DNA of 38,763 nucleotides, taken from the sequence record SRR20825010_1094; one strand, written 5' to 3'. Position 1 is the stretch's first letter. Each line of letters begins with the position of its first letter. Both the position numbers and the translations under genes were made by a program. The notes under the pieces are model-generated. The model saw only the letters and a list, made by a program, of their open reading frames with translations. It did not search any database and was not told where the DNA came from. Positions 14,196-37,955 of this stretch are shown here, piece by piece.

Positions 14196-14234
14196 GCCAG
14201 CATAAAGTCGTTTCATTTGAGCGACTTGGACCCT

Positions 14235-15887
14235 ATGACATCCATAAAAGACAGACAGAGCCTGTTTGAGGTCGGCATCACCGTGATGCTGATCTCACTG
14301 GTGCTTGTACCGGCCGTCTCCGCCACCTTGAACCTGACCCTTGTTATCGGGCATTGGCTGTTTCTCACCAGTCTTGCGCTGTTTGCCCTTGAAGGGGCAC
14401 GCCGGGTGCACCCCTTGGCAGGCTCCCTGCTCTTCAGCCTGATCACGGCCGTGCTGGCCGTGGAAATTCTGGTGCAGCGGCTTACTGGCCTGCACCTCAA
14501 TACTTTTACCTTGAGCCTGATGTTCGAGAGCGGGTGGCAGGAAAATATTGGCCTCTCGGTTACCGCTGGACTGGCACCGCTTGGCTTGATCGGGCTGAGT
14601 TTTTTCCTCGCACGGGCGCGGCCTCGCAAACCACTCAGACTACCGCTTCGCCCAGCGCTTTTCGCGGCACTCCTTGGTGTGGGGCTGGCTCAAATTACCT
14701 ACGCTGTGCTTTATTTTGGGGCCGATACCCACGTTATGGAAACCCGCCGTAAGCTGCCGTTTTTCACAGCAATGCATCCTTACCGGGCTGAAAAACTTCT
14801 GCAGCCGTTTCTGGGCAATCGGCCTTTAAATCCTTTCGCCCTGTCGCGGGTAAAGGCTGCCAGCGCTCCGACACCTCAAGGTAATTTGAACATCACTCGC
14901 TCACGCAATATCCTGTTCATTATTGCTGATAGTATACGCGCAACAGATATTCAGGCAGACGCGGGCGTCGCCCCTAACATCGCTGCACTCAGCGAGAAGG
15001 GACAATTGTCGCTTTCCCATTACGCAGCCTCCAATTGCACACATTTCAGCATGTACAGCATGTTTACCGGCAATCTGCCCACAGGCTATGAAGCGGCACG
15101 CCGCGCTGCCGCGCCTGTCGGGCTCATGAACTGGCTCAAGGGCGCAGGCTACAGCCTCTCAAGTGCTGAAGCTCTTTCCCTTGATTGGTACGATCTCTCA
15201 ACCCTGCTCTTTACCCCCGCAACCCGAAACACTGCCCATGGTGGGACCGCTGTCACCAGGGATAGTTTCGTAACCGAAACAACAATTCGAATACTTGAAG
15301 AAGCAGGTGAAAAACCTTTCTTCCATCTGGCATACTATAACGGCGCACACTTTCCCTATGGCGACAATGATCCCCTGCCCGGCCTTGCGGGTGGCACACC
15401 AGAGAGCTACCGCGCTGCCGTGCGTGCTACCGATGCTGAGATCGGCAAGCTACTGGACAGTGTAGCCCGAAGGGAAGATGACACTTTGGTGATTGTGACA
15501 TCTGACCACGGTGAGGCGGTGTTCGAGAATGGTATCGTAGGCCACGCTAGTGAACTTACCGATGAGCAAATGATTGTACCGTTCGGTGTTATGGGGGAGA
15601 TACACGAGCCACTTCCCACCAGCCAACTTGGTATTGCAGATTTCATTCTGGCTCAACTGGGAGCTGGAACCAAAAGTCACAGCGCCCCGACCATCCTCAG
15701 CAATTGCAGCTATGCCTTCCCCAACGGGTTCGCTGTTATTGACGGCGAAAGACGAGCCGACTTCATTTTTGAGGATGGCTTCCTGAGCCCTGTGCCTTCC
15801 CCGAACGGCAAAATGCCGCCTAAAGCGTTTCAGCTTGAAGCGGCACAGCAGCTTGTTAAAGCGATCAACAGCGATACGCCTGAATAG
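14235..15887 (+). CDS. Membrane-anchored alkaline-phosphatase/sulfatase superfamily hydrolase (YejM/LtaS-like); start uncertain (TTG 14217 or ATG 14235)
   Basis: 4-5 N-terminal TM segments, then NILFIIADSIR, SNCTHFSMYSMFTG (Thr nucleophile position), HFPY, IVTSDHGE, GHAS; no CxPxR sulfatase motif. Confidence 0.75.
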   Translation: MTSIKDRQSLFEVGITVMLISLVLVPAVSATLNLTLVIGHWLFLTSLALFALEGARRVHPLAGSLLFSLITAVLAVEILVQRLTGLHLNTFTLSLMFESGWQENIGLSVTAGLAPLGLIGLSFFLARARPRKPLRLPLRPALFAALLGVGLAQITYAVLYFGADTHVMETRRKLPFFTAMHPYRAEKLLQPFLGNRPLNPFALSRVKAASAPTPQGNLNITRSRNILFIIADSIRATDIQADAGVAPNIAALSEKGQLSLSHYAASNCTHFSMYSMFTGNLPTGYEAARRAAAPVGLMNWLKGAGYSLSSAEALSLDWYDLSTLLFTPATRNTAHGGTAVTRDSFVTETTIRILEEAGEKPFFHLAYYNGAHFPYGDNDPLPGLAGGTPESYRAAVRATDAEIGKLLDSVARREDDTLVIVTSDHGEAVFENGIVGHASELTDEQMIVPFGVMGEIHEPLPTSQLGIADFILAQLGAGTKSHSAPTILSNCSYAFPNGFAVIDGERRADFIFEDGFLSPVPSPNGKMPPKAFQLEAAQQLVKAINSDTPE

Positions 15888-15897
15888 AGTTCCGTTT

Positions 15898-16554
15898 TTA
15901 AGCTGTTGTGTCCGCCGCACTTAGGCCAACGCTTTTGAGCACAAGATCGATCACGGTCGTCTTGGCCTCCTCAAACTGAGCGTCGTCAAGCGGGTCACCC
16001 TCGTTCATCACATCAATCTGCGCGGCGAAATCCGCATAATGCTGGGTTGTGGCCCAGATCATGTAAAACAGGTAGCGCGACTTAACAGGGGAAAGCTTGC
16101 CCTCGGCTATCCAGCGTTCCAGCACACGCTCGCGGCTCTCAAGCCATGGCTTCACCGTACCAATCAGATATTCCTGCAGAAACGGTGCGCCAGAGGCCAT
16201 CTCTATCGCCCAAAGCCGGGAACCATGAGGACGCGAACGGGCCAGATCCATCTTGGAAGCCACATAGGTACGCAGCGCCTGCGCCGGGTTTTCCGTCTCA
16301 TCGAAAGTATCGGCCGCATGCAGCCAGATCGAACACACGCCTTCTATCACCCGGCGGTAAAGGTCTTCCTTCGCGCCGAAGTAATAATAGACATTGGGTT
16401 TGGGTACACCAGCGCGCTCGGCAATCAAACCGACGCTCGCTCCCTTAAAGCCCTTCTCAGCAAATACTGTTTCCGCCGCCACCAGTATCTTAGCTACATT
16501 TTCTCGGCGGATCCCGGCTTTATGGCCGGTTTCTTTTTTTGTTTTGTCCGTCAT
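15898..16554 (-). CDS. rutR: TetR family regulator, RutR-like (uracil/thymine-responsive)
   Basis: TetR HTH (ILVAAETVFAEKGF...IAERAGVPKPNVYYYF) plus RutR C-terminal signature IWATTQHYADF; start at ATG 16554 after SD GGGGA. Confidence 0.85.
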   Translation of the reverse strand: MTDKTKKETGHKAGIRRENVAKILVAAETVFAEKGFKGASVGLIAERAGVPKPNVYYYFGAKEDLYRRVIEGVCSIWLHAADTFDETENPAQALRTYVASKMDLARSRPHGSRLWAIEMASGAPFLQEYLIGTVKPWLESRERVLERWIAEGKLSPVKSRYLFYMIWATTQHYADFAAQIDVMNEGDPLDDAQFEEAKTTVIDLVLKSVGLSAADTTA

Positions 16555-16616
16555 AGGTCCCCCTAAGGCCACCTTTAACCACACTTCAACACAAAGGTCT
16601 ATTCAGATGTGGTGCT

Positions 16617-16648
16617 AAAGAAAACGCCCGGGAGGGTCCCCCGGGCGT
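16617..16648 (-). terminator. Intrinsic terminator of the TonB-dependent receptor gene
   Basis: ACGCCCGGG...CCCGGGCGT stem followed on the minus strand by TTTCTTT. Confidence 0.8.
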
Positions 16649-16673
16649 CATATATGGGGTCACAAGTTCAGGA

Positions 16674-19600
16674 TTAGAACTTGTATTTCGCACCAATCTG
16701 CAGAACCCAAACAGAGCTCGTGTCTTGGAAGCGGAAGAACGGATCGCTTACGCTGCCGTACGTGATCTGACCAGTTGCCGCGTCAACATCCGCGTCAACC
16801 ATCGCTTGCTGACCAAACTGAGAATCGTAAGCTTCGCCCCAGGCACTGTTGAGGAAGTTCAGAACGTTTTCCATGTTCATGAACAGCTCAACCTTACCGA
16901 AGCCAACGCCCACTTCCTGTGCAATGCGCAGGTCAAGGTCGTTGATCCAAGGGCCACGCTCGCTTTGAAGGCCGACAGACTTACCACGCTCCAGATCGTA
17001 GGTATCTACAAGCTGGTTAAATGCTGTGCGTGCATCTGCATCTTCAAAGAGCACCTTGGCACCAGCTGCATTTGCGCCGCCAACCAAAGCTGCTTCGCCA
17101 GCAGCAGGTACGTAGATGAGGTGACCATCACCACTATCGATCGAGCTTGAACCACCAAACTGGAGGAACTCATCCATAGCGATAGAGAATGGCTTGCCAC
17201 TACGACCCTGGTAGTAAAGGCCAACAGTGGTGAAGTTATCGCCCCAGAAAGCTTTCTGGTATGTCAGGCCGAGTTTAACCTGGTGGCGAGTTTCAAACAC
17301 CGATGTACCACGCAGACGGTTATTCCGATCGAGGTGTGCCGCGAAATTATAGTTCGACGAGGCTGTCGAGCTTGTTCCTTCGTTGGCAACTTCAGAGTCG
17401 TTGAACGCGTATGAACCGAAGATCGACACGCCGTTATCCCAAGACTTGTCAAAGGATACTGCATAAGTTTCTGATTTCGCTTCAGCACCGTTTGTCAGCA
17501 GGATGTCGTAACCCTGGGTCGCACTGTAGATCGGTGAACCGTCAGCAGCAGTGTTAATTACTTCACGACGCAGTTCTTTCCAGTCTGCGGCATTTTGTGA
17601 ACGAGCCCACAGAGCTTCAAGAGTTACGTGCCAGTCGTCACCTAGGGCACCGAGATCAAAGTAACGATCAATTCCTAGGTTGAACTTCCAAACGCCTGGT
17701 ACCTTGAAATCCGGGTCGATAGCCGCAACGTCACCGCCGTCCGGATTCCCACCGAGCCCGTCAAGTGCGAACTGTGGCACTTGTGAAAAGTCAGGGTTAG
17801 CAATCAGGGCAGCGTCGTTCGAGAAATATGTCAGCGTCGTTACACCATCAAGCGAGTATGCGTTTGAAACCCACACAAGCGGATCGCCACCAGCGAAACG
17901 GCCGAAGCCACCACGAAGCGTGGTTTTATCGTCGAGATCATAGGTGAATGCAAAACGAGGTTGAATGATGCTCTTGCCGTCCAGCGTTGCTGTATTGGCA
18001 AAACCGTTACGATCAACAAAGTTTTGGTTCAGCGCTGGCTCGTCACTGGTTTTCCAGAAATCGACACGCAAGCCGCCTGTAAGGGTGAGCTTGTCGCTCA
18101 TGTCCCAACGGTCTTGAAGGTAGAGCGTGTGTGTTGCCAGTTTAAACGAAGCTGCGCCGTCATCTGGGTTGTTCGAAGCAGCGTTCTGGTATGAGAAAGT
18201 AGCAGGTGCACCAGCTTCGAAATCATCGATGCTGTTAAACTGCCAAATACCGCGGGTACGCTGGATAAACAGGTTAAACACGTCAACAGCGTCATACTCG
18301 TAACCGGCAGTGATCGTGTGATCGCCGCTTACATAGTCAGCTTTGAGTTTAGCCTGCCATGTTTTGTTGTTGAGCGCGTTTGAGTGACGGCTGTCATCAA
18401 TACCCATGTAGACGGTACCGCTGTTCCCATCATCGCTGGTGCGAACCTGGATCTCACCAATACCTTGGTCAAGCGCAAGGCCAACCTGGCCAGTTTCGTT
18501 TTTCTTGTAACCGACTTTAAGTTCGGTTGAGAAATTGTCTGTCCAGTCAGAGAAAACCTGGAAGTTATAGGCTTGCAGTTTTTCCGAACGGTTATAGTTG
18601 TGAGACAAGAAAGCAAATCGGTTGCCGCCGTGATCTGTCAGCGAAAGCGAGTTACCGTCTGTGTACTGATAGGAAGCAAATGCACGGTGGTTGTCGTTGA
18701 TGTTCCAGTCGAGTTTGAAGAAAATCTTCTCGTCAGACTCGGCAATGCTATCATCGCCACCATACATATTGTCGATGCCGTAGCTTGAAGCAATCGCATC
18801 AATACGCTCTACATCCGCAACATTCACGCCGGAAACTTCACTCGCAGCGCCTGAACCTGTAGCGCCTGTAGTGTTTGGCGTGGAGCCATCAAACTTCTCG
18901 TATGAAGCAAAGAAGAAGAGTTTGTCTTTGATGATTGGCCCGCCGAGGGTAGCACCCCAGAATTTATTCTCGAACGTGCCGAGATCAACATCAAGGTCAT
19001 CACCGTCCACCGTTACCGACTTGTCGCCTGCGAGGCTTTGGTCGCGGTACTGATAGAAAGCTGTACCATGGAACTCGTTGGTACCGGATTTGGTTACAAC
19101 GTTGATCTGGCCACCGGTGAATTTGTTGAATTCTACGCTAAACGGAGCCGGGGAAACACCCACCTGCTCAACCGCATCGATGGAAATGGGTGAACGCTGC
19201 GTTGGGTAACCGTTGCCGTTCAGGCCGAAGTCATCATCCTGACGGATACCATCAACCGTAAGGCTGTTGAAACGGTTGTTCGCCCCACCGATTGAGAGCG
19301 CATCGTTGCTGCCGCTGTCGATGGATACAAACGGGTTCGCACGAATAGTGCTTTTAAGGTCACGACCGATCGACGGCATCTTGTCGATCATGTCTGCGCC
19401 GTAAGAAGATGACCCACCGGAGCGGATGGCCGCGATACGGCTTGCTACGACTTCAATCTCTTCAACACTCGCGCCAGAAGCTGCCAGTGGAATTGTGAGA
19501 GGGAGTGGTTCGCTTACATTCAAAGTCAAACCTTCGAAAGACTGGCCTTGGTAGTTGCCGGAAGCAGCTACATCTACATTGTAAGGGCCACCTGGACGCA

Positions 19601-19826
19601 GGCCGCGCGCAAAAAATGCGCCCGAGCTATTGGTTGTGTATGTACCACGCGACCCGGATGGGACGTGTACTACAGTTACTTCAACACCGGAAATTGGGTT
19701 CCCGGATGCATCAACGACCGTACCACGGATCGAGGACGTAATTTCCTGCGCTATTACAGGTACACTTACCGCCATTGCGGCCAGTGCAACGCTGCTACAA
19801 AGAGCAGCTCTCATTTGGCGTTTCAT
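16674..19826 (-). CDS. TonB-dependent receptor, Oar-like, with N-terminal carboxypeptidase-regulatory-like domain
   Basis: Signal peptide; ITSSIRGTVVD...GLRPGGPY; IEEIEVVAS-type TonB-box region (VEEIEVVAS); plug NSLTVDG..DDFGL, GGQINVVTKSGTNEFHG; C-terminal IGAKYKF. Confidence 0.93.
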   Translation of the reverse strand: MKRQMRAALCSSVALAAMAVSVPVIAQEITSSIRGTVVDASGNPISGVEVTVVHVPSGSRGTYTTNSSGAFFARGLRPGGPYNVDVAASGNYQGQSFEGLTLNVSEPLPLTIPLAASGASVEEIEVVASRIAAIRSGGSSSYGADMIDKMPSIGRDLKSTIRANPFVSIDSGSNDALSIGGANNRFNSLTVDGIRQDDDFGLNGNGYPTQRSPISIDAVEQVGVSPAPFSVEFNKFTGGQINVVTKSGTNEFHGTAFYQYRDQSLAGDKSVTVDGDDLDVDLGTFENKFWGATLGGPIIKDKLFFFASYEKFDGSTPNTTGATGSGAASEVSGVNVADVERIDAIASSYGIDNMYGGDDSIAESDEKIFFKLDWNINDNHRAFASYQYTDGNSLSLTDHGGNRFAFLSHNYNRSEKLQAYNFQVFSDWTDNFSTELKVGYKKNETGQVGLALDQGIGEIQVRTSDDGNSGTVYMGIDDSRHSNALNNKTWQAKLKADYVSGDHTITAGYEYDAVDVFNLFIQRTRGIWQFNSIDDFEAGAPATFSYQNAASNNPDDGAASFKLATHTLYLQDRWDMSDKLTLTGGLRVDFWKTSDEPALNQNFVDRNGFANTATLDGKSIIQPRFAFTYDLDDKTTLRGGFGRFAGGDPLVWVSNAYSLDGVTTLTYFSNDAALIANPDFSQVPQFALDGLGGNPDGGDVAAIDPDFKVPGVWKFNLGIDRYFDLGALGDDWHVTLEALWARSQNAADWKELRREVINTAADGSPIYSATQGYDILLTNGAEAKSETYAVSFDKSWDNGVSIFGSYAFNDSEVANEGTSSTASSNYNFAAHLDRNNRLRGTSVFETRHQVKLGLTYQKAFWGDNFTTVGLYYQGRSGKPFSIAMDEFLQFGGSSSIDSGDGHLIYVPAAGEAALVGGANAAGAKVLFEDADARTAFNQLVDTYDLERGKSVGLQSERGPWINDLDLRIAQEVGVGFGKVELFMNMENVLNFLNSAWGEAYDSQFGQQAMVDADVDAATGQITYGSVSDPFFRFQDTSSVWVLQIGAKYKF

Positions 19827-19955
19827 TCCCTAAGCTCCATTAACGTGCCGATGTATCTTCTGGAAGGGCCCCCTTCGATCCCGGCACTGAACGACTAATT
19901 CGCTGTTTTAAAAAAAGTCTCACACACAGAACATGCACATCGAAACAACCAAATC

Positions 19956-19971
19956 CTGACCGAAAGGTCAA
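19956..19971. promoter_or_regulatory. RutR-like box upstream of TonB receptor (proximal)
   Basis: CTGACCGAAAGGTCAA; 11/12 match to TTGACC-N4-GGTCAA. Confidence 0.75.
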
Positions 19972-20036
19972 GTCAGGCCGTTCCTGCGCACAATTGCTGC
20001 GTCGCATGACTTTTATGCTCGGTTTTTTTCAGTTTT

Positions 20037-20052
20037 TTGACGAAAGTGTCAA
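20037..20052. promoter_or_regulatory. RutR-like box upstream of TonB receptor (distal)
   Basis: TTGACGAAAGTGTCAA; perfect TTGAC-N6-GTCAA with the same flanks as the 28860 site. Confidence 0.75.
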
Positions 20053-20170
20053 GATTCATTGGAAGGCTGCGATTTATAGCAACCGCAATTCCCTTTAAAG
20101 TGACGCAAAGGGCACAGCTCCGCCACTTTTCGCAGAAATCTGCGCTTTCGCTTTCATATGAAACTGTGGC

Positions 20171-20207
20171 TTAAAAACAACAAGGAGGGCGCTCATCACG
20201 CCCTCCT
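20171..20207 (-). terminator. Intrinsic terminator ending the bmp-ABC-cdd-deoA-deoB-S1/P1 operon
   Basis: AGGAGGGCG-N7-CGCCCTCCT stem followed on the minus strand by TGTTGTTTTT. Confidence 0.75.
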
Positions 20208-20255
20208 CACACCCATTATGCGAATCGTTTAGTCCCACACCGGGGTTTTATCTCG

Positions 20256-21047
20256 TTATTCTCCGATGTCAGCGAACAGCTTGTTCAGGTGGCCAGCAAG
20301 CCGAATTCCGCCCTTTGAAAGCTGTGATTTAATCACCGGCGTGTATTTATAAACATAGTCGTAGCTGAAGATCGCGTTGCCCACATTATAGATATCGGCC
20401 CGCATCGCAATCAGCTCACGCACCCAATCTATAGGCTGCGCGCCCTGCCACTCTGTTACCTGTGCCGGGGTAATCTTGGGCTCAAGAAAGCGCACCCATT
20501 CAGTGAAAGAAAGCAGCTTGTAATCAATCAGGTCCTCATCCCACACCTTGTGAAGGTTGCTCATCTCCTCAAACCACACCACGTCAATACGGTTTCCGCC
20601 CCAATCTTCAGCGCGACCCGCGTGAAGTGGCTGGTGCAGGTCGCCAACAATATGGATGATAAAACGAAGCGCGAGTTGGCGTTCTTCCAGCGGCAACGCC
20701 GCGTCCTTCACCTTTTCGCTATACATCGCGAGCGCTGTCAGCGCGTCACCGGCAGGGTTCTTGACGCTGTCTTCATACGTCACACCGTCTGGCAGGTTAA
20801 TGTAGTGGTAGGTCTGTGATTCCTTGCGCCAGAAGGCATCGGGGTTAGAGCGCATTTCGTCGGGCCAGTTTGCAGCTTCGGCCATAAACTCGGTGCCCAG
20901 CAGTTCCTTCACCGCTGCCTCAGCCTCAGGCGTGAGGTGGCGTGATGCCAGCTCCGCGATCACCCGGTGGCCCGTTGGCCCGTAAGCGCTGGCCGCAGCA
21001 GAAAGGCCCGCCACCATTACCAACCCACAAAATAGTTTGCGCAACAT
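20256..21047 (-). CDS. S1/P1 nuclease, exported
   Basis: Signal peptide ending AAASA then YGPTGH; zinc-ligand motifs WPD, HYIN, HIVGDLHQPLH, NLHKVWD, GGIRLA. Confidence 0.93.
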   Translation of the reverse strand: MLRKLFCGLVMVAGLSAAASAYGPTGHRVIAELASRHLTPEAEAAVKELLGTEFMAEAANWPDEMRSNPDAFWRKESQTYHYINLPDGVTYEDSVKNPAGDALTALAMYSEKVKDAALPLEERQLALRFIIHIVGDLHQPLHAGRAEDWGGNRIDVVWFEEMSNLHKVWDEDLIDYKLLSFTEWVRFLEPKITPAQVTEWQGAQPIDWVRELIAMRADIYNVGNAIFSYDYVYKYTPVIKSQLSKGGIRLAGHLNKLFADIGE

Positions 21048-21087
21048 ACCCCTTGCTCCCCTCAATCAAATATTCAGTCTGAATTTG

Positions 21088-22305
21088 TTAAAATGCGTTT
21101 TCGCCGTCATCCAAAGCGGCGATACCCAAGTGATGCGCCACACTTTGCCCGATATCGGCGAAGCTTTTACGAACGCCCTTGCTACCCGGCCCTAGGTTGG
21201 GGCCATAAGCCACAAAAGGCACATGCTCACGTGTATGGTCGCTGCCCGGCCAAGTCGGGTCGCAGCCGTGGTCGGCCGTCAGGATAACAACATCGTCCGC
21301 CTTCATGCCGTTTAGAAACTCTGGCAGGCGGCCATCAAAATATTCCAGTGCGGCAGCATAGCCCCCCACGTTGCGGCGATGCCCAAAGGACTGGTCAAAA
21401 TCGACAAAATTAACGAAGGTCAACGAGCCTTCCGGTGCGCTGTCAAGTTTCTCGAGCGATACTTCAAAAAGCCCATCCAGGCCGTTAGCTTTTACCTTCT
21501 GGGTCAAACCACGGTGCGCAAATATATCTGCAATCTTGCCAACAGAGATCACTTCCCTGCCCGCGTCCTCCAGCTTTTCCAGAAGGGTTGGCTTGTGGGG
21601 CGGTGTAGCAAGGTCGCGGCGGTTGCCGGTACGCTCAAACGTGCCGTTCTCCCCCACAAAGGGCCGTGCGATCACGCGGCCAATGTTATATTCATCCACC
21701 AGTTCCCGCGCGACAGCACAAACTTCATAAAGCCTCTCAAGGCCGAAATGCTCTTCATGCGCTGCAATCTGGAACACACTATCGGCTGAGGTGTAAACAA
21801 TCGGCTTGCCGGTGCGGATATGCTCATCGCCAAGCTCTTCCAATATCACCGTGCCCGAGGCCGCCTTATTGCCAATCACGCCCGGTAGGCCACACCGTTC
21901 AATCAGCTCATTCAAAAGCTTTTCAGGAAAGCTCGGGTATTTCTGCTCAAAATAGCCCCAGTCAAATTCAACCGGCACACCCGCCATTTCCCAATGGCCA
22001 GATGGTGTGTCTTTCCCGAAAGACCGTTCCGCGCACGCCGCATAAAGCCCGGTGACCTTGCCGTCCAGCTCCAGCCCTTTTGGCTCCTTACCTGTTGCCA
22101 GCTCCGCCGCTTTACCAAGCCCAAGCCGTGCCATGTTTGGCAGAGACAGCGGGCCCGCGGTCTCGCGCTCCGGTGCCGTATTGCCCGCCGCGCACCAATC
22201 CGCAATATGGCCAAGCGTATCCGCGCCCACATCACCAAATTTTTCCGCGTCGGGGGCTGCACCAATGCCAAAACTGTCGAGAACCAAAATAAAGGCCCGT
22301 GCCAT
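21088..22305 (-). CDS. deoB: Phosphopentomutase
   Basis: [68 protein letters not shown]. Confidence 0.97.
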
Positions 22306-22307
22306 CT

Positions 22308-23654
22308 CTATTCTCCGATTGTTTGTGCGACGATCGGGCCTGCGCTCACGGCGGCCGCAGATATCGTCACTGCACTATGGAAACGGCTGATCGCATCATC
22401 TGCTGCCGCCTCTGTCTTAGCATACACCATCGCAAGCGGTTGGTCCGCCTGCAGACTATCGCTGATCTGACAAATCTCCGTGAACCCAACGCTGTGATCA
22501 ACGGCTTGCGAGGGGCTTGTACGTCCGCCACCAAGCGCCACCACAGCCATGCCAATCGCGCGCGTATCCATCGCCGCCACATATCCCGCCTTGCCTGCCA
22601 ATACCGGTTTCACAATAGGCGCAAGCTTGAGGTAGCTGTCTTTCTTTTCAAACAGGTCATTGGGGCCACCTTGCGCGGCCACCATTTTTTCAAACAGGCC
22701 AGCTGCATCGCCGCGCATCAGGGCAACCGCAGCCTTGTCGCGCGCGGTGTCAAAGTTTGGTTGCGCGCCAGAAAGGCTGAGCATATGGGCAGCGAGATCA
22801 AGGGTGATATCCACGAGCCGCTTGTCAGCTGTCTTGGGGTTTACCAGAAACTCGATGGTCTCAAAAACCTCAACCGCGTTGCCTGCTGTACGGCCAAGCA
22901 CCTGGTTCATGTCGGTCAGAAGGGCTGTTGTTGGCACACCAGCAGCGCCCGCAACACGCACAATATTGCGCGCAAGCTCTTCTGCTTTCTCATAGCTGTC
23001 CATAAAGGCGCCATTGCCGAACTTCACGTCCATCACCAAAGCATTCAGCCCGGCAGACAGTTTTTTCGACAAGATGGAAGCGGTGATCAGCGGGATGCTC
23101 TCGACCGTCGCGGTCACGTCGCGGATACCATAGAAGCGCTTGTCCGCAGGGGCGAGGTCGCCCGTTTGACCGATAATCGAACAACCAACGGTTTTTACGA
23201 TATCTGCAAACTTGTTAATGCTCGGGTATGGGTCGTAGCCTGGGATGGACTCGAGCTTGTCGAGCGTGCCGCCCGTGTGGCCAAGCCCACGACCAGAAAT
23301 CATCGGTACATAACCACCACATGCCGCCACAATCGGCGCCAGCATAAGGCTTACCTTATCACCCACACCACCCGTGGAGTGTTTGTCCACAATCGGCGCA
23401 CCAGCTTCAAAACCCAGCTCTGTCCAGTTCATAACATCGCCGCTGTCCCGCATGGCAAGCGTCAGCGCTGCGCCCTCTTCCGGGCTCATGCCGTTAAAGA
23501 ATACCGCCATACCAAGGGCTGCAACTTGCCCGTCCGTTACGCTGCCATCCGTAATGCCCGCGACAAAACGCTTGATATCGGCATCGGGAACCACACCGCC
23601 ATCACGTTTGATGCGGATCACTTCTTGCGGCAAAAAGGCGCCAGCTTCACTCAT
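22308..23654 (-). CDS. deoA: Thymidine phosphorylase
   Basis: [60 protein letters not shown]. Confidence 0.96.
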
Positions 23655-23683
23655 CACACTTCCTCTGCTTCTCAGCGTTCTGG

Positions 23684-24091
23684 TTATTCAGAAAGGTTTT
23701 CAGGCCCGAACGAGTGCGGCAACAGCTCGGCGCTCGTGGTTTCCAGCAACACGGTGCCTTTGTGGTCAACAATTGTGACAGGCGCGCCAGCCTGGCCTGC
23801 AAACTCGCGTATCTGCTGCCTGCAACCACCACAGGGGGTGCACACATGTGTGCCCGGCCCCGCAATCACGATATGCTTGATCTGGTTTGCGCCCTGCATG
23901 ATCATATTGCCAATGGCATTGGCCTCCGCGCAGAAGCTGAGCGGATAGGCCGCGTTTTCCACATTGCAGCCAGCTACCACCTTGCCGTCTGAGGTCAGCA
24001 GCGCTGCCCCCACCGGGTGGTTGGAATAGGGGGCGTAGGCTTTAGCTTGCGCCTCAAGCGCAGCATCAATCAATTGTTTAACATCCGCCAT
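23684..24091 (-). CDS. cdd: Cytidine deaminase (homotetrameric type)
   Basis: AYAPYS, GCNVENAAY, CAE, PCGGCRQ. Confidence 0.95.
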   Translation of the reverse strand: MADVKQLIDAALEAQAKAYAPYSNHPVGAALLTSDGKVVAGCNVENAAYPLSFCAEANAIGNMIMQGANQIKHIVIAGPGTHVCTPCGGCRQQIREFAGQAGAPVTIVDHKGTVLLETTSAELLPHSFGPENLSE

Positions 24092-24093
24092 GC

Positions 24094-25068
24094 TTAGTGG
24101 TCCTTCTCATACGGGATACCGCTTGCTTTCGGTGCATCCATCTTGCCCGCAAAACCGGCAAGGATAATCACCGTCAGCACATAAGGCAGCATGATGGTGA
24201 ACTGCACCGGCACCTCGCCAATAAGGGGCAGGCTTTCGCCCTGCAGGCGGCCCTGAAGCGCGTCAACAAAACCAAACAGCAAGCAAGCCAGAAGGGTTGG
24301 CACAGGTTTCCAACGGCCAAAAATCATCGCGGCAAGTGCTAAATACCCTTTACCCGCAGACATGTCCCGGATGAAAGCTGCCCCCATGCCGGTTGAAAGC
24401 ACCACGCCTGAAAGCCCGCATAGCATGCCTGCAATCATCATGGCCTGATACCGCAGTTTCGTGACAGAAATGCCAGCGGTGTCCACGGCTTCAGGGTTCT
24501 CGCCCACTGCGCGCAGGCGCAAGCCAAAGCGGGTGCGATACAGCATCCATGCAACAAGCGGGATGATAAAAACGGTCAGATAGGTGATCAGGTTGTGGCC
24601 AGAAATGATCTCGCTATAAAGCTGACCGATAACCGGCACGTCACTCAGGCTATCCGCAAACGGCCATTTGATGGCGCTGAAGCGCGCCTCCTCCCCCAGA
24701 AGCGGGGTCTGCCCACCTTGATGGAACCAAAAGTTCGCGAGCGTAGGCGCGAGGCCCGCAACCGCAATATTGATCGCCATGCCGGAGACGATCTGATTAC
24801 CGCGCTGCGCGATCGATACATAGCCATGAAGAAGCGCCAGCATCACTGAGGCCAGCACCCCGGCCACAAGTCCCGCCCAAGGCGAACCTGTAACCGCCGC
24901 AGCCGCCGCAGCCGCAAACGCAGCGCCCAGCATCTTGCCTTCAAGCCCGATGTCTACAATGCCTGCGCGTTCCGCCACAAGGCCGGCAAGGCCGGCAAGC
25001 ACAAGCGGCGTTGCGGTGCGGAACGTGCTGTCGCTCAGGAGCGTGAGGTCAGTCAAAAACTCGATCAT
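24094..25068 (-). CDS. Nucleoside ABC transporter permease (NupC-like)
   Basis: ERAGIVDIGLEG, GLRLRAVGENP, GKGYLALAAMIFGRW. Confidence 0.9.
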   Translation of the reverse strand: MIEFLTDLTLLSDSTFRTATPLVLAGLAGLVAERAGIVDIGLEGKMLGAAFAAAAAAAVTGSPWAGLVAGVLASVMLALLHGYVSIAQRGNQIVSGMAINIAVAGLAPTLANFWFHQGGQTPLLGEEARFSAIKWPFADSLSDVPVIGQLYSEIISGHNLITYLTVFIIPLVAWMLYRTRFGLRLRAVGENPEAVDTAGISVTKLRYQAMMIAGMLCGLSGVVLSTGMGAAFIRDMSAGKGYLALAAMIFGRWKPVPTLLACLLFGFVDALQGRLQGESLPLIGEVPVQFTIMLPYVLTVIILAGFAGKMDAPKASGIPYEKDH

Positions 25069-26168
25069 GCCGCCCTCCTCTCGAACCGCATGAACAGGCG
25101 CTCAATCGGGTCGCGGAACATATGCTCCATCGCACCAGCGAACAAGATCACAAGCCCCTGGATCATCACGATCAGATCTCGGGTGATATTGGGCATTTCA
25201 AACGCCAGTTCCGCCCCGCCCTGATAAAGTGCCCCAAAGAGGACTGCTGCCAGCACAATGCCTAAAGGATGGTTGCGCCCCATGAAGGCCACGGCAATGC
25301 CAACGAAGCCGTAACCAAGCGTGAAATTGCCAATAAGGCGGTGCTGTTCACCAAGGATTTCATTCAGCCCCATCATGCCCGCAAGCGCGCCGGAAATCAT
25401 CATCGCCACAATGGTCATGCGCGCTACAGGCACACCGGCAAACCGCGCCGCACTGTGGTTTTTGCCCACCACACGCAACTCATAACCAAACCGCGTACGG
25501 TTCAACGTAAACCAAACCGCAATTACACATAGAAGCGCGATGAGGGCAGAGATGTTCAACGGGCTTTCTTCAAAACTGACCCCAAGAGCGCCAAACAGCT
25601 CGTGCATGGGCGTGAGGCCTGTGCCCGGCGGGAAATCCGCGCTTTCAGGCATCTGGCCGCCGGGGCGCTGCAATGGGCCCACAAGCAGATAGGCCAGAAG
25701 AGCCGAGGCGATAAAATTGAACATGATGGTGGTGATCACAATATGGCTGCCACGCTTGGCCTGTAACCACGCCGGGATAAAGGCCCACGCGGCACCAAAA
25801 AGCGCCGCCCCCACGATACCTGCGAGGGCCGCAAGCATGGGCGCGTCACCACCAACCATAAACACAGCGAGCGTGAGGCCAAGCCCGCCCAGCATCGCCT
25901 GTCCTTCACCGCCGATGTTAAAAAGCCCGGCATGATAGGCAACAGAGACCGCAAGCCCGGTAAAGACAAAATTGGTGGCGTAATAAAAGGTATAGCCGGT
26001 GGCTTCTTCAAACCCGAATGCCCCCTCCCACATCAGGGAAAGTGCCAGAAACGGGTCTTCGCCCAACCCCCAAATTACAAGGCCAGAGACGATGAAGGCC
26101 GCGAGCAGGTTAAGCGCAGGCAGTAGCCCGACTTCCGCCCACAACGGCAGTTTGGATGCGCGCGCCAT
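25065..26168 (-). CDS. Nucleoside ABC transporter permease (NupB-like)
   Basis: GLFNIGGEGQ, VITTIMFNFIA, GYGFVGIAVAFMGRNHP. Confidence 0.9.
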   Translation of the reverse strand: MARASKLPLWAEVGLLPALNLLAAFIVSGLVIWGLGEDPFLALSLMWEGAFGFEEATGYTFYYATNFVFTGLAVSVAYHAGLFNIGGEGQAMLGGLGLTLAVFMVGGDAPMLAALAGIVGAALFGAAWAFIPAWLQAKRGSHIVITTIMFNFIASALLAYLLVGPLQRPGGQMPESADFPPGTGLTPMHELFGALGVSFEESPLNISALIALLCVIAVWFTLNRTRFGYELRVVGKNHSAARFAGVPVARMTIVAMMISGALAGMMGLNEILGEQHRLIGNFTLGYGFVGIAVAFMGRNHPLGIVLAAVLFGALYQGGAELAFEMPNITRDLIVMIQGLVILFAGAMEHMFRDPIERLFMRFERRAA

Positions 26169-27703
26169 CAGACAGCCATCCTTTTTTCACCCGCCATCAT
26201 CAGGCCAAGGGTCTGCTCGTCCGCATCCTCAACATTGAGCGTACCAACAATCTCCCCCTCGCACATTACCGCAATGCGGTCAGAGATCGCGAGCAACTCG
26301 TCAAGGTCGGCGGAGACAACCAACATAGCCTTACCTGCGTTCCGGAGGGTGGTGATCTGGTCATGGATTTTGGTTACCGCGCCGATGTCCACACCGCGGG
26401 TTGGTTGGCCAATAACCATCAGTTGCGGATCGCGAGCAATCTCGCGGGCGATCACAAGCTTCTGTTGGTTCCCGCCGGAAAATGAGCCAATGGCGAGGCT
26501 TGGGTTTCGCGGCCGCACGTCCTGGCTTTCAAAATAACCTGCGGCTTTCGTCGCAATATCCTTCAACTTAAGAAGGCCATTCTTGGAGAAATCTTCTTCG
26601 CGCTGATAACCGAGGATGGCGTTTTCGCGCGCCGACATGCTTTCCACCACCCCGGTTTTTAGGCGGTCTTCTGCTACATGGGCCATGCCCATGCGCCGAA
26701 GTGCTATCGGGCTTGTAACCGTGCCCGCGTCCGCGATCACATCGTCACCATAGGTGATGGTGCCTGCGCTTACCTGTCGAAGGCCGGTGATGACCTCAAG
26801 AAGTTCTGTTTGCCCATTTCCTGCCACGCCTGCGATGCCAAGCACCTCGCCGTCCCGCACCTCAAGCGATACATTCTTGAGTGCTTCATGGCCTCGGCCA
26901 TCCAGCGCTGAAACGGCTGAAAGCGACAGTCGAAGCGGGTGACCTGAAACCTCAGCCCTGCTGGCGGTACGGGCAATTTTCGCCCCCACCATCAGCTCCG
27001 CCAGTTCTGCGGCAGACGTTTCACTTGTCTTCTTGAGCGCCACAATTTTGCCAGCCCGCATGACAGTCACGTCATCGGTAATGGCCATAATTTCATGCAG
27101 CTTGTGAGTGACAAAAAGCACCGTTTTACCCTGTGCCTTCAACTGGCGGACAAGATCAAAAAGCTGTTCTGTCTCCTGAGGGGTCAACACCGCCGTTGGC
27201 TCATCCAGAATCAGCGTATCAGCCCCTTTATAAAGTGCCTTCAGGATTTCAGCCCGCTGTCGCACCCCAACGGAGAGGTTTTCAACCGGCTCATCAAACG
27301 GCAGATCAAAACCAAACTTGCTTTCAAGCGCCTTGAGCTTGTCCCGCGCCGCAGCCTTTGCAAGGCGCAGGTTAGAAGACCCTTCAGCACCGAGGATGAT
27401 ATTCTCTAAAACCGTGAAGGGTTCCACGAGCATGAAGTGCTGGTGCACCATACCAATGCCCGCAGCCATTGCGGCCATTGGGTTAGGGAAGTGGCTATGC
27501 ACACCGTCCACCAAAATATCGCCGCCATCGGGGCGATAGAAGCCGAACAACATCTTGAGAAGTGTGGATTTTCCGGCACCGTTCTCCCCCACGATACCGT
27601 GCACGCTGCCCTTTTCCACCTGCAGTGAAAGGCCATCGTTGGCACGCACGTCCCCAAAATGTTTAGAAAGCTCTCTGGTTTCTATCGCCAACACCTGGGT
27701 CAT
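26168..27703 (-). CDS. Nucleoside ABC transporter ATP-binding protein (CUT2, two NBDs)
   Basis: GENGAGKST, GIGMVHQHF, ILDEPT; second NBD GVAGNGQ, SGGNQQK, QPTRGVD. Confidence 0.93.
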   Translation of the reverse strand: MTQVLAIETRELSKHFGDVRANDGLSLQVEKGSVHGIVGENGAGKSTLLKMLFGFYRPDGGDILVDGVHSHFPNPMAAMAAGIGMVHQHFMLVEPFTVLENIILGAEGSSNLRLAKAAARDKLKALESKFGFDLPFDEPVENLSVGVRQRAEILKALYKGADTLILDEPTAVLTPQETEQLFDLVRQLKAQGKTVLFVTHKLHEIMAITDDVTVMRAGKIVALKKTSETSAAELAELMVGAKIARTASRAEVSGHPLRLSLSAVSALDGRGHEALKNVSLEVRDGEVLGIAGVAGNGQTELLEVITGLRQVSAGTITYGDDVIADAGTVTSPIALRRMGMAHVAEDRLKTGVVESMSARENAILGYQREEDFSKNGLLKLKDIATKAAGYFESQDVRPRNPSLAIGSFSGGNQQKLVIAREIARDPQLMVIGQPTRGVDIGAVTKIHDQITTLRNAGKAMLVVSADLDELLAISDRIAVMCEGEIVGTLNVEDADEQTLGLMMAGEKRMAV

Positions 27704-27727
27704 GGGAATGTGTGCCTGCCTTAAGCC

Positions 27728-28744
27728 TTAGTGACCGGAGTTGCTGCCAGCCACGTCACCAACGACGATTTCACCGCTGATAATGGCGGCCCGCGCTGCA
27801 TCCAGCGCGGTTTTCATATCGTCGGTAATCAGGCCTGCGTTATGCTCATCAAGCGCATAATCAACACCGCCAGCCTCAAGGCCCATCACACGGTGGCCGG
27901 CCTCCCATGTGCCTTCGCGTGCTTCTGTCATTGCAGTATAGACGGCAAGGTCCACCCGCTTGAGCATGCTGGTAAGCACCGAACCAGGCGCAACATGATT
28001 TTGGTTGCTATCCACACCAATCGCGAGTTTGCCGCTGTCTTTCGCGGCCTGAATAACACCAAGACCGGAGGGGCCAGCGGCAGAAAACACAATGTCCGCA
28101 CCCCGCGCATATTGGCTTCGTGCCATCTCAGATGCCTTGATCGGGTCATTCCACGCACTTGGCGTTGTGCCTACATAATTCTCGATAATGGTCATGTCAT
28201 CACGCACATAGGCGATGCCTTCACGGTATCCTTGCTCAAACCGGCGAATGAGCGGGATGTCCATGCCACCGATAAAACCAACGGTGCCCGATTCGCTCTT
28301 CATCGCCGCAATCATGCCCACAAGGAACGATCCTTCGTTTTCCTTGAAAGTGATGGATTGCACGTTGGGAAGATCAATAATCGCGTCAATAACGGTGAAT
28401 TTTACGTCCGGGTACTGGCTTGCCACATTACGAACCGCAACGGAATAGCCAACACCCACGGCCACAATCAGGTCTGCCTTACGGCGGGCAAAACGCTTGA
28501 GCGCCTGTTCATACTGGGTTTCGCTCGAAGGCTCGAAGTCGCGGAAATCCGCGCCTGTCTCTTCCTTGAAACGCGCAGCACCCACATAAGCCGCTTCGTT
28601 GAAGGATTTATCGAATTTGCCGCCGATATCATAAAGCAGCACGGGCTGTACTTCTGCGGCCTGCACGGCACCCAAAGTAGCCCCCACAGCCACAAGACCA
28701 ACAGCCAGCGCTTTCAAGCAAAATGCCTTCACCAAATTCGTCAT
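27728..28744 (-). CDS. BMP family nucleoside-binding periplasmic protein
   Basis: Signal peptide from ATG 28744 (SD GGAG); GGKFDKSFNE, EGSFLVG, GFIGGMD, AIGVDSNQ, SMLKRVD. Confidence 0.92.
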   Translation of the reverse strand: MTNLVKAFCLKALAVGLVAVGATLGAVQAAEVQPVLLYDIGGKFDKSFNEAAYVGAARFKEETGADFRDFEPSSETQYEQALKRFARRKADLIVAVGVGYSVAVRNVASQYPDVKFTVIDAIIDLPNVQSITFKENEGSFLVGMIAAMKSESGTVGFIGGMDIPLIRRFEQGYREGIAYVRDDMTIIENYVGTTPSAWNDPIKASEMARSQYARGADIVFSAAGPSGLGVIQAAKDSGKLAIGVDSNQNHVAPGSVLTSMLKRVDLAVYTAMTEAREGTWEAGHRVMGLEAGGVDYALDEHNAGLITDDMKTALDAARAAIISGEIVVGDVAGSNSGH

Positions 28745-28837
28745 GTATTTGTCACTCCCAGGCAGCATAAAGTTGAGCGGAAAATTGCGTCTTCATTTAT
28801 GCCCTTATATTGTGGATTGGCGCAAGGGAACCAGAGC

Positions 28838-28859: not shown

Positions 28860-28875
28860 TTGACGTTTTGGTCAA
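28860..28875. promoter_or_regulatory. RutR-like box in bmp/upp divergent region
   Basis: TTGACGTTTTGGTCAA; 12/14 match to the E. coli RutR consensus TTGACCAnnTGGTCAA. Confidence 0.8.
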
Positions 28876-34608: not shown

Positions 34609-34624
34609 CTGACTGTAAGGTCAA
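34609..34624. promoter_or_regulatory. RutR-like box upstream of deoC
   Basis: CTGACTGTAAGGTCAA, overlapping the stop codon of the upstream permease; its minus-strand start TTGACC is also a -35-like hexamer. Confidence 0.65.
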
Positions 34625-37856: not shown

Positions 37857-37955
37857 ATTTTCCTCCCTCAAGGCTTGCCGAAGCCAGACGAACTGCCTAG
37901 GCTCGCGTCACACCATATCCCAACATTCGGGCAAAGAACATAAGACAGATCGCGC

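Follow-up and report, generated by a model that had tools for sequence, protein, structure and literature searches.

Dissolved DNA and RNA are major phosphorus, nitrogen and carbon pools of seawater and sediments, and to our knowledge the passage of their breakdown products through the outer membrane has been little described for Gram-negative heterotrophs outside the Bacteroidota. What, then, enters through an outer-membrane transporter whose gene lies among genes of nucleoside breakdown? The question is raised by a stretch of 38,763 nucleotides from sequence record SRR20825010_1094 (hereafter the window, meaning the whole stretch), in which the gene for an Oar-type TonB-dependent transporter (TBDT) is surrounded by a nucleoside-catabolism island of about 23 kb, as annotated with Pfam and NCBIfam. 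The source genome is the complete 4.18 Mb genome of a Kordiimonas-like alphaproteobacterium. The original prediction, made from the window alone, had proposed short single-stranded DNA or RNA, nucleotides or nucleosides as the ligand. The genomic context examined here supports a ligand derived from nucleic acids, and the transporter is probably a uracil-derepressed outer-membrane importer of nucleic-acid breakdown products. We consider an entry gate of this kind the most likely function because the gene shares the boxes of the island and because its relatives adjoin nucleases, nucleotidases and nucleoside transporters.

The transporter gene and its predicted operators

The gene for the transporter, a protein of 1050 amino acids, was found between a gene for an S1/P1 nuclease and one for a RutR-like regulator; the open reading frame (ORF), the Pfam matches and the neighbours agree with the arrangement described in the original prediction. 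Terminator-like hairpins end both the nuclease and the transporter genes, the latter hairpin beginning 25 nt past the stop codon and running from 16649 to 16623 on the minus strand, and the transporter is therefore a separate transcription unit, apart from the deo operon. The intergenic region upstream of it measures 429 bp, and past the nuclease terminator about 350 bp of this remain. A terminator of its own and a separate upstream region of about 340 bp had both been claimed, and both are borne out. This region holds two RutR-type boxes, and since these lie between the nuclease terminator and the transporter start, no gene but the transporter can use them.

The palindrome TTGAC-N6-GTCAA, with at most one mismatch, was observed eight times in the window against 0.96 expected, and none of 100 shuffles reached eight. 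Exact copies number 14 genome-wide, box 1 among them, and four of these fall within the window, that is, within 38.8 kb or 0.93% of the genome. A one-mismatch copy lies about 110 bp before a preT-preA-(beta-ureidopropionase-like)-NCS1 operon at 867-873 kb. We aligned the upstream region of nine Kordiimonadaceae-type loci (homologous loci are designated here by L numbers), and a few strongly conserved islands were seen in a background of 64% identity, the main ones being the two boxes, together with a few bases on their flanks, and the stretch comprising the ribosome-binding site and the first codons. The half-sites TTGAC and GTCAA of box 1 were invariant in all nine, its spacer varying in L002, L030 and L049; box 2 is degenerate in L049, which has box 1 only, so that the predicted pair is present and conserved in eight of the nine. 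The box in the divergent region between the ABC (ATP-binding cassette) operon and upp was found, with varying sequence, at the same place in L001-L004, L014 (one mismatch) and L049. A box also lies between preT and the transporter in L011, and boxes occur upstream in L017 and L025. We take the boxes to be conserved, predicted operators of a RutR-type regulon that covers the ABC transporter/upp region, deoC and preTA, and the regulatory evidence is to this extent stronger than had been seen before.

The candidate regulator of these operators is encoded directly downstream of the transporter. Its alignment with RutR of E. coli runs end to end (E = 3e-41 to the RutR structures), and of the uracil-contact residues of RutR used for comparison (PMC4325133) three of four are retained: W77, L78 and W167 are kept as W87, L88 and W177, and L74 is replaced by C84. 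Since its score of 179 bits lies below the NCBIfam RutR equivalog cut-off of 368 bits, we call it RutR/PydR-like and not a proven orthologue. Its start is probably the ATG at 16554 (residue 11), where the alignment with E. coli RutR begins, the longest ORF overcalling it. With conserved palindromes upstream and a cognate regulator that carries uracil-pocket residues, the transporter gene looks like a member of a RutR/PydR regulon, for which we infer a repressor logic with uracil as effector.

No Fur-like box had been noticed earlier in the intergenic region, and our scan agrees, the best match there being 11/19 to the E. coli-type 19-mer, a chance level given 92 such matches in the window and a maximum of 13/19; this is a weak negative only, because the window offers no strong positive control for the iron box of this organism. 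A scan of 15800-21200 for the sigma-70 consensus gave no promoter-like site, and an Rfam scan of the whole window gave no match, so that the long 5' region contains no known riboswitch or leader. Of 23 public sequencing runs found, none was listed as RNA.

The protein has the architecture of the Oar subclass. Its N-terminus reads MKRQMRAALCSSVALAAMAVSVPVIA followed by QE, and its C-terminus ends in KYKF, giving a signal peptide at one end and an aromatic residue (Phe) at the other. Pfam placed CarboxypepD_reg (PF13620), and not STN, at residues 32-114 (63 bits), which is the extension by which the Oar subclass is defined (PMC6434023). Plug was matched at residues 140-234 with 22.7 bits, slightly below the cut-off of 23.9, and OMP_b-brl_4 at residues 353-1006 with 183 bits, TonB_dep_Rec_b-barrel also being matched. 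The AlphaFold2 model, with 43 homologues in the alignment (mean predicted local distance difference test, pLDDT, 86.4; predicted TM-score, pTM, 0.84), shows a beta-sandwich extension, a disordered linker, a plug at residues 140-245 and a large barrel at residues 253-1049. The linker at residues 120-137 (pLDDT below 50) holds the motif EEIEVVAS, which we take to be TonB-box-like; the consensus of the homologue alignment at this place is ExIxVTG. Foldseek returned a probability of 1.0 to more than 300 solved TBDT chains, as expected of a plugged barrel. The closest solved structures were FusA (4zgv, E = 2e-32) and YddB (6ofr, E = 2e-30), with TM-scores of 0.67-0.71 on these targets and a sequence identity of 13%. 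A phmmer search of the PDB sequences found no relatives of the transporter, so that only the fold search was informative.

Homologous loci and the transporter slot

In a search for loci with transporters of this kind, 590 of the 599 stretches matched were found to encode relatives, and the 79 loci compared here come from the best 80. Their flanks were annotated using tblastn with the window proteins and a panel of neighbour proteins, and Pfam was run on 209 flanking proteins (68 + 60 + 81). A direct nucleic-acid or nucleoside context, comprising nucleases, nucleotidases or phosphatases, nucleoside or nucleobase transporters, and catabolic or salvage enzymes, was observed in 30 of the 79 loci. 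For rough comparison, when 23-kb windows were drawn at random from the genome to which the window belongs, only about 10% contained any gene of the query panel. Twenty loci have a nuclease, of the S1/P1, EEP or Endonuclease I type; 18 have a BMP-ABC, NupC or NCS1 transporter for nucleosides or nucleobases in the inner membrane; 12 have a 5'-nucleotidase, class-B acid phosphatase, PhoA or PhoD; and cdd, deoA, udk, preTA or AMP nucleosidase occur in many. PpnN was the sole link in 23 loci (22 of a Lysobacteraceae clade, and L066), and 14 loci were uninformative, six of these being contigs shorter than 10 kb or carrying a truncated transporter. Glycoside hydrolases and siderophore or iron genes, which the original prediction had named as the neighbours that would speak against it, were absent among the 209 Pfam-checked flanking proteins of the 79 loci.

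At least eight distinct architectures were recognised in different families of Alpha- and Gammaproteobacteria, which argues that the association is not a single inherited synteny. Kordiimonas proper (L001-L004) shows full synteny, with transporters 69-88% identical to that of the window, and in Emcibacter (L011) preTA and a box precede the transporter. In Colwellia (L016, L022) the order is PhoA, EEP nuclease, a divergent RutR-like gene and the transporter, then cdd-deoA. Woeseiaceae, Chromatiales and other Gammaproteobacteria (L015, L029, L039, L045, L056, L072) have a second TBDT and an EEP nuclease, the transporter, and a 5'-nucleotidase and/or class-B acid phosphatase, accompanied by cdd, deoA, deoC/aldH, preTA or an NCS1 permease. 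In Pseudoalteromonas (L006, L021) a 5'-nucleotidase and an S1/P1 nuclease, with two unknown genes between them, precede the transporter, whilst in Alteromonadaceae and others (L008, L017, L020, L025, L033) a 2-oxoglutarate (2OG)-Fe(II) oxygenase, NupC and udk do so, L008 and L017 also having an EEP nuclease on the downstream side. The transporter stands between NupC with udk and NupC with AMP nucleosidase in L028; it is accompanied by PhoD and NupC in L024, by a 2OG oxygenase and NupC in L055 (SAR86), by an EEP nuclease in L013, and in L065 by a 1357-aa protein with lamin-tail repeats and Endonuclease I. Almost all of the gammaproteobacterial nucleotidases, acid phosphatases, PhoA and PhoD carry lipoprotein signals, as do most of the nucleases there. 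The window thus assembles a nuclease, an ABC importer, deo genes and a common box in the manner of a polysaccharide utilisation locus (PUL), and analogous PUL-like gene sets are found in L006, L008, L015, L016, L022, L029, L045, L056 and L072.

In Kordiimonadaceae we observed that the transporter is not the same protein throughout. L010, L014, L030, L043 and L049 are other Kordiimonadaceae-type genomes with the deo/ABC/nuclease/regulator neighbourhood (partial in L010), and their mature transporters are merely 35-40% identical to that of the window. The flanks in L014, L030, L043 and L049 are nevertheless 54-94% identical to the window, with promoter region, boxes and signal peptide retained; L010, whose flanks are only partly retained (58-82% identical), is the one slot occupant without boxes. 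Even in the diverged occupants L014, L030 and L049 the signal-peptide stretch is 57-70% identical. FastTree and IQ-TREE trees placed the window transporter and L001-L004 in one clade next to Emcibacter L011 and L018, L014 and L010 with Woeseiaceae sequences (L014 being 57% identical to L015), and L030 and L049 in a third group with L072 and L042. The approximately unbiased test rejected a tree uniting the seven slot occupants, a group chosen after the first tree was known (log-likelihood 831.6 lower, p = 0.0002).

The DNA comparisons locate the break. The alignment of the window with L004 is continuous, at 71% throughout the region. With L014 the identity is 71-76% until about 110 nt into the gene (window 19717), only short patches are found inside the gene, and homology returns at 16647, in the terminator, and continues through the regulator gene. 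The G+C content at third codon positions (GC3) of the transporter gene is 0.53, compared with 0.57-0.66 in its neighbours. From these comparisons the part of the gene that encodes the mature protein appears to have been swapped at least twice, the promoter, both boxes and the signal peptide staying in place, so that three unrelated transporter lineages occupy one slot of the Kordiimonadaceae by what looks like a cassette swap. Since different transporters sit in the same regulated slot, its occupants would do an equivalent job for the island. The recombination of the slot, with at least three unrelated lineages, is perhaps driven by phages or bacteriocins that use the transporter as receptor.

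Several further features of the homologous loci were recorded. In Lysobacteraceae the ppnN gene, for a nucleotide 5'-monophosphate nucleosidase, follows the transporter in L027, L032, L036, L038, L044, L047, L050, L051, L053, L054, L057-L059, L062-L064, L068, L069, L071, L074, L075 and L078. In the loci checked with Pfam (L044, L053, L066) it is encoded on the transporter's strand, some 130-140 bp downstream; it is upstream instead in L064, and the pairing in L066 belongs to another transporter clade. The agmatine context (L005, L009, L012, L019, L026, L031, L034, L046, L052, L073, L076, L079) has the order PMT_2 glycosyltransferase, transporter, and agmatine deiminase and/or a CN-hydrolase resembling N-carbamoylputrescine amidase. 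Its transporters come from several clades of the tree but share one conserved position, apparently a second slot whose occupants are diverging and whose substrate is likely to be a different one. The 2OG-Fe(II) oxygenase (DIOX_N + 2OG-FeII_Oxy) is encoded together with NupC, udk and the transporter in members of the Alteromonadaceae, in SAR86 and in one alphaproteobacterium (L008 4706-5545, L017 6577-7575, L020, L024, L025, L033, L055 13232-14134), and it may modify nucleosides or pyrimidines. Two conserved genes of about 300 codons stand between udk, or the 5'-nucleotidase, and the transporter in L008 (7862-8800 and 8784-9707), L025, L006 and L021; both products are N-terminally hydrophobic, one being without a Pfam match and the other weakly similar to phosphonate-binding proteins (30 bits). 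Two contigs labelled as Actinomycetota metagenome-assembled genomes (L007, Planktophila; L066, Acidimicrobiia) carry TonB-dependent transporters, and since these are outer-membrane proteins, the contigs are probably mis-binned proteobacterial ones.

The surrounding island

The features of the window discussed here are collected in Table 1. The minus-strand genes run in the order BMP/PnrA-type substrate-binding protein, ABC ATPase, two permeases, cdd, deoA, deoB, the S1/P1 nuclease, the transporter and the TetR_C_3 regulator, the score of deoA exceeding the NCBIfam equivalog cut-off for thymidine phosphorylase. Further along the island are upp, a phosphoribosyltransferase gene (hpt), a purine-nucleoside phosphorylase gene (pnp), deoC, an aldehyde dehydrogenase gene (aldH), an adenosine-deaminase-like gene and tdk.

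Table 1. Coordinates of the transporter, its domains, predicted control elements and neighbours in the window
Feature	Position	Strand	Basis or detail
Oar-type TonB-dependent transporter, 1050 aa, intact ORF, ATG start	16674..19826	-	ORF, Pfam, AlphaFold2, Foldseek
Signal peptide, about residues 1-25, ending VIA before QE	19752..19826	-	sequence reading; low pLDDT at 1-27
N-terminal extension, CarboxypepD_reg beta-sandwich, residues 31-114	19485..19736	-	PF13620, seven strands in model
TonB-box-like motif EEIEVVAS, residues 122-129	19440..19463	-	position in disordered linker
Plug domain, residues 140-245	19092..19409	-	weak Pfam match, folded in model
Beta-barrel, residues 253-1050, ending GAKYKF	16677..19070	-	PF25183, PF00593, modelled strands
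Terminator-like hairpin after transporter gene	16623..16649	-	12 pairs, 9 G-C, then T-run
Terminator-like hairpin after nuclease gene	20180..20210	-	13 pairs
RutR-type box 1, exact palindrome TTGACACTTTCGTCAA	20037..20052	.	-226..-211 from ATG
RutR-type box 2, TTGACCTTTCGGTCAG	19956..19971	.	-145..-130 from ATG
RutR-type box, exact palindrome, ABC operon/upp divergent region	28860..28875	.	
RutR-type box with 1 mismatch, immediately before deoC and the aldehyde dehydrogenase gene	34609..34624	.	
RutR/PydR-like TetR regulator (TetR_N + TetR_C_3), downstream of transporter	15898..16584	-	TetR_C_3 151 bits
S1/P1 nuclease, directly upstream of transporter	20256..21065	-	Pfam, 193 bits
Nucleoside uptake and catabolism operon: BMP/PnrA-type ABC (4 genes), cdd, deoA, deoB	21088..28768	-	Pfam, NCBIfam

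The nuclease begins with MLRKLF and reads AAASA before and YGPTGH after the cleavage site, that is, it has a Sec-type signal peptide without a lipobox; its likely start is the ATG at 21047 (residue 7), the longest ORF again overcalling it. A second S1/P1 nuclease gene was found in the genome (G000 C1:3712632-3713465, about 27% identical, 169.5 bits to Pfam); neither a homologue of the transporter nor a nucleoside gene lies within about 9 kb of it.

Some other proteins of the island are unusual. Between the adenosine-deaminase-like gene and deoC lies a gene for a 539-aa polytopic membrane protein (34621-36240, minus strand) without a Pfam match. The ESM-Atlas clusters closest to it (0.98) either lack a name or bear the label AGZA family xanthine/uracil permease; the protein probably belongs to a nucleobase permease family missed by Pfam, and a RutR-type box overlaps the 3' end of its gene. 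The aldehyde dehydrogenase after deoC (31173-33581, minus strand) is 802 aa long, with extra sequence outside the Aldedh domain, and in the 521-aa adenosine-deaminase-like protein (36306-37871, minus strand) the family match is limited to residues 283-459; either protein may be a fusion or a divergent form. On the plus strand (14217-15887) a membrane-anchored protein of the alkaline-phosphatase superfamily is encoded, with Sulfatase and Phosphodiest matches and several N-terminal hydrophobic segments. Its gene adjoins the regulator in every Kordiimonadaceae-type locus (35-77% identity) other than L010 and L043, the latter being truncated, and a link to nucleotide dephosphorylation is possible but unsupported.

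Candidate functions and known systems

The route that we propose runs as follows. Extracellular DNA or RNA would be cut, the Sec-exported S1/P1 nuclease, at work in the periplasm or outside the cell, turning single-stranded nucleic acid into 5'-mononucleotides, and the TonB-energised transporter would move the products through the outer membrane. A periplasmic phosphatase would convert nucleotides to nucleosides, which the BMP/PnrA-type ABC system would take in and Cdd, DeoA, PNP, DeoB, DeoC and the aldehyde dehydrogenase would break down, the freed bases passing to Upp/Hpt or to the PreTA reductive pathway. The neighbouring RutR/PydR-type regulator would repress the transporter via the two operators until uracil derepresses it, and pyrimidine from the first imported molecules would turn on the entire route. 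We infer both the direction of transport and the ligand from the shared boxes and the comparative gene context.

A number of observations weigh against such a route. A UshA-type 5'-nucleotidase was not found in the genome, where for the step from nucleotide to nucleoside only PhoD homologues were found. The mature transporter is strongly acidic, with a net charge of -56 and similar values in its relatives; as a proxy for a basic lumen this whole-protein figure is uninformative. The genome's only Tsx-like gene (G000 C1:3155551-3156129; L080 5019-5855; 45.7 bits, Pfam PF03502) adjoins a B12-type ABC system (BtuF-like/FecCD/ATPase) and cobQ, not nucleoside genes, and has no RutR-type box upstream at two mismatches or fewer; that a Tsx-like channel is the real nucleoside gate of this genome is neither excluded nor supported. 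Because loci of related genomes are not independent, the weight of the association rests on the number of architectures. The loci with PpnN alone count for little, since they come mostly from one family, the Lysobacteraceae, and PpnN is cytoplasmic. Twelve of the 79 loci (Caulobacterales, Hyphomonadaceae, Maricaulaceae) have the agmatine-deiminase context, and the transporter family is therefore not uniformly linked to nucleic acids. In the reciprocal comparison the S1/P1 family was found in 10 of 301 alphaproteobacterial genomes, and none of the 10 other S1/P1 loci retrieved had a homologous transporter within about 9 kb, one having NupC, so that the pairing of transporter and S1/P1 nuclease is lineage-specific. 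Lastly, replacement of the slot occupant by divergent lineages could mean that their specificities differ.

If nucleic-acid breakdown products are imported, nucleotides or short oligonucleotides are by a small margin the likelier ligand compared with free nucleosides. A phosphorylated ligand is favoured by the lipoprotein nucleotidases and phosphatases of the gammaproteobacterial loci, by the Sec-type local nuclease and by the large cargoes of the structural relatives; these lipoprotein enzymes and the Sec-signal nuclease fit periplasmic processing of imported phosphorylated products. Free nucleosides are favoured by the pyrimidine-nucleoside-centred genes (cdd, deoA, udk, NupC, the uracil-type regulator and preTA), by the missing 5'-nucleotidase and by the existence of TBDTs for small sugars, such as NagA for N-acetylglucosamine (table in the Braun review, PMC11658791). 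The same points are the ground for a narrower form of the import reading, in which the transporter is a strictly nucleoside-specific gate, a TonB-driven replacement of Tsx used mainly for pyrimidine nucleosides made outside the cell. We regard this special case as possible but doubtful, as it has to account for the nucleotidases, phosphatases and nucleases that flank the gammaproteobacterial homologues, for a Sec-type nuclease directly beside the window transporter and for a large barrel resembling FusA and YddB.

Two explanations lie outside nucleic-acid import. The substrate may be unrelated to nucleic acids (peptides, an agmatine- or polyamine-like compound, or another scarce nutrient), the transporter sitting in a recombination-prone slot whose boxes serve the neighbours. 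The refilling of the slot by unrelated lineages, the lower GC3 of the transporter gene, the 12 agmatine-context and 14 uninformative homologues, and the fact that the closest solved structures import proteins can all be read in this way; yet both boxes are usable by the transporter gene alone and are kept with all slot occupants except L010, and the association recurs in unrelated families, whose homologues likewise adjoin nucleases, nucleotidases and nucleoside transporters, which makes an unrelated substrate unlikely. Outward transport is less probable still, and we hold it to be quite improbable that the transporter exports the periplasmic S1/P1 nuclease or other hydrolases as Oar of Myxococcus does PopC. 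Here the Oar architecture itself (PF13620 extension, plug, large barrel) is suggestive, since secretion of a 50.8-kDa protein that depends on Oar, TonB and the proton motive force has been published (PMC6434023, PMC11658791), and the adjoining nuclease has a Sec signal and no lipobox. A nuclease is nearby, though, in just the 20 loci mentioned and absent in the other 59; L020, L024, L025, L028, L033 and L055 have only NupC, udk or phosphatases beside the transporter, most gammaproteobacterial-locus nucleases are lipoproteins and follow a different sorting route, the 10 other S1/P1 loci lack such a transporter, and the hairpins put nuclease and transporter on separate transcripts.

Import of nucleic-acid products finds its closest published analogue in the ddbABCDEF DNA-utilisation locus of gut Bacteroidales (PNAS 2025, PMC12478041), in which nucleases are combined with a transporter of the SusC type and the DUF5689 protein that partners it. 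For DdbC/DdbD, as for the window protein, transport is a likely role, the published wording being 'likely transports' (PMC12478041), and in the portion of that paper covered here the outer-membrane DNA route named for Pseudomonadota is pilus-based only. The window transporter differs from DdbC/DdbD in being Oar-type, proteobacterial and under predicted RutR-type control, and no SusD-like or DUF5689 lipoprotein gene adjoins it or appeared in the Pfam scans of the window. Oar of Myxococcus xanthus is needed for export of the PopC protease and adjoins exbB, exbD and tonB (PMC6434023). It is likened to the window transporter by architecture: Oar has a signal peptide, a CarboxypepD_reg extension, a TonB box, a plug and a 22-strand barrel in a protein of about 1000 aa, and the window protein has a matching layout, with a TonB-box-like motif and a large modelled barrel. 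The context in the window, by contrast, is nutrient catabolism, with no Ton genes among the annotated genes. Tsx of E. coli resembles it as an outer-membrane nucleoside route within a nucleoside-catabolism regulon. Tsx, however, is a small passive channel of 12 strands, and the window transporter is plugged, of the TonB-energised type and 1050 aa long. FusA, which imports ferredoxin, and YddB are large plugged TBDT barrels like the window protein but are without the N-terminal extension.

The RutR regulon of E. coli and the PydR regulons (PMC4325133, PMC5343134) likewise have a TetR_C_3 regulator, a TTGACC-N4-GGTCAA-like palindrome, uracil-contact residues and control of preTA; the predicted regulon of the window extends beyond these to nucleoside uptake, deo genes and an outer-membrane transporter. 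A 2016 survey of proteobacterial regulons (PMC5343134) mentions TBDTs, in the text covered here, for HypR, HutC and NagR and not for RutR, and its supplementary tables may list one. In the part covered of a 2024 review of TBDT substrates (PMC11658791) nucleosides are mentioned solely for the Tsx porin. In full-text literature, with subscription-only papers and the RegPrecise tables outside the search, we found no paper that describes a TBDT of Proteobacteria handling nucleosides, nucleotides or DNA fragments. What appears to be new here is a proposed substrate class and a locus organisation as yet undescribed in this phylum for an otherwise ordinary class of transporter, together with an unusually clean cassette replacement.

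It is tempting to extend this to other families, and we do so tentatively. The homologous loci may be proteobacterial PUL-like systems in which an Oar-type TBDT actively imports mono- or short oligonucleotides made by co-encoded nucleases, lipoprotein nucleotidases and phosphatases trim these in the periplasm, NupC or a BMP-ABC system takes up the products, and the transporter is in Kordiimonadaceae an exchangeable cassette. By gene context, an Oar-type family linked to nucleases, nucleotidases and importers of nucleosides would span Kordiimonadaceae, Alteromonadales, Woeseiaceae, Caulobacterales and SAR86, and the cassette swap behind a fixed promoter offers a clean natural case of non-orthologous outer-membrane protein replacement. 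If the proposed function is correct, a substrate class would be assigned to part of a very large orphan subclass of transporters, metagenomes would gain a marker gene for nucleic-acid foraging, and the Oar-type nucleic-acid family would offer a directly testable system. Pseudomonadota would then have a TonB-dependent route of nucleic-acid nutrition alongside the pilus-based one.

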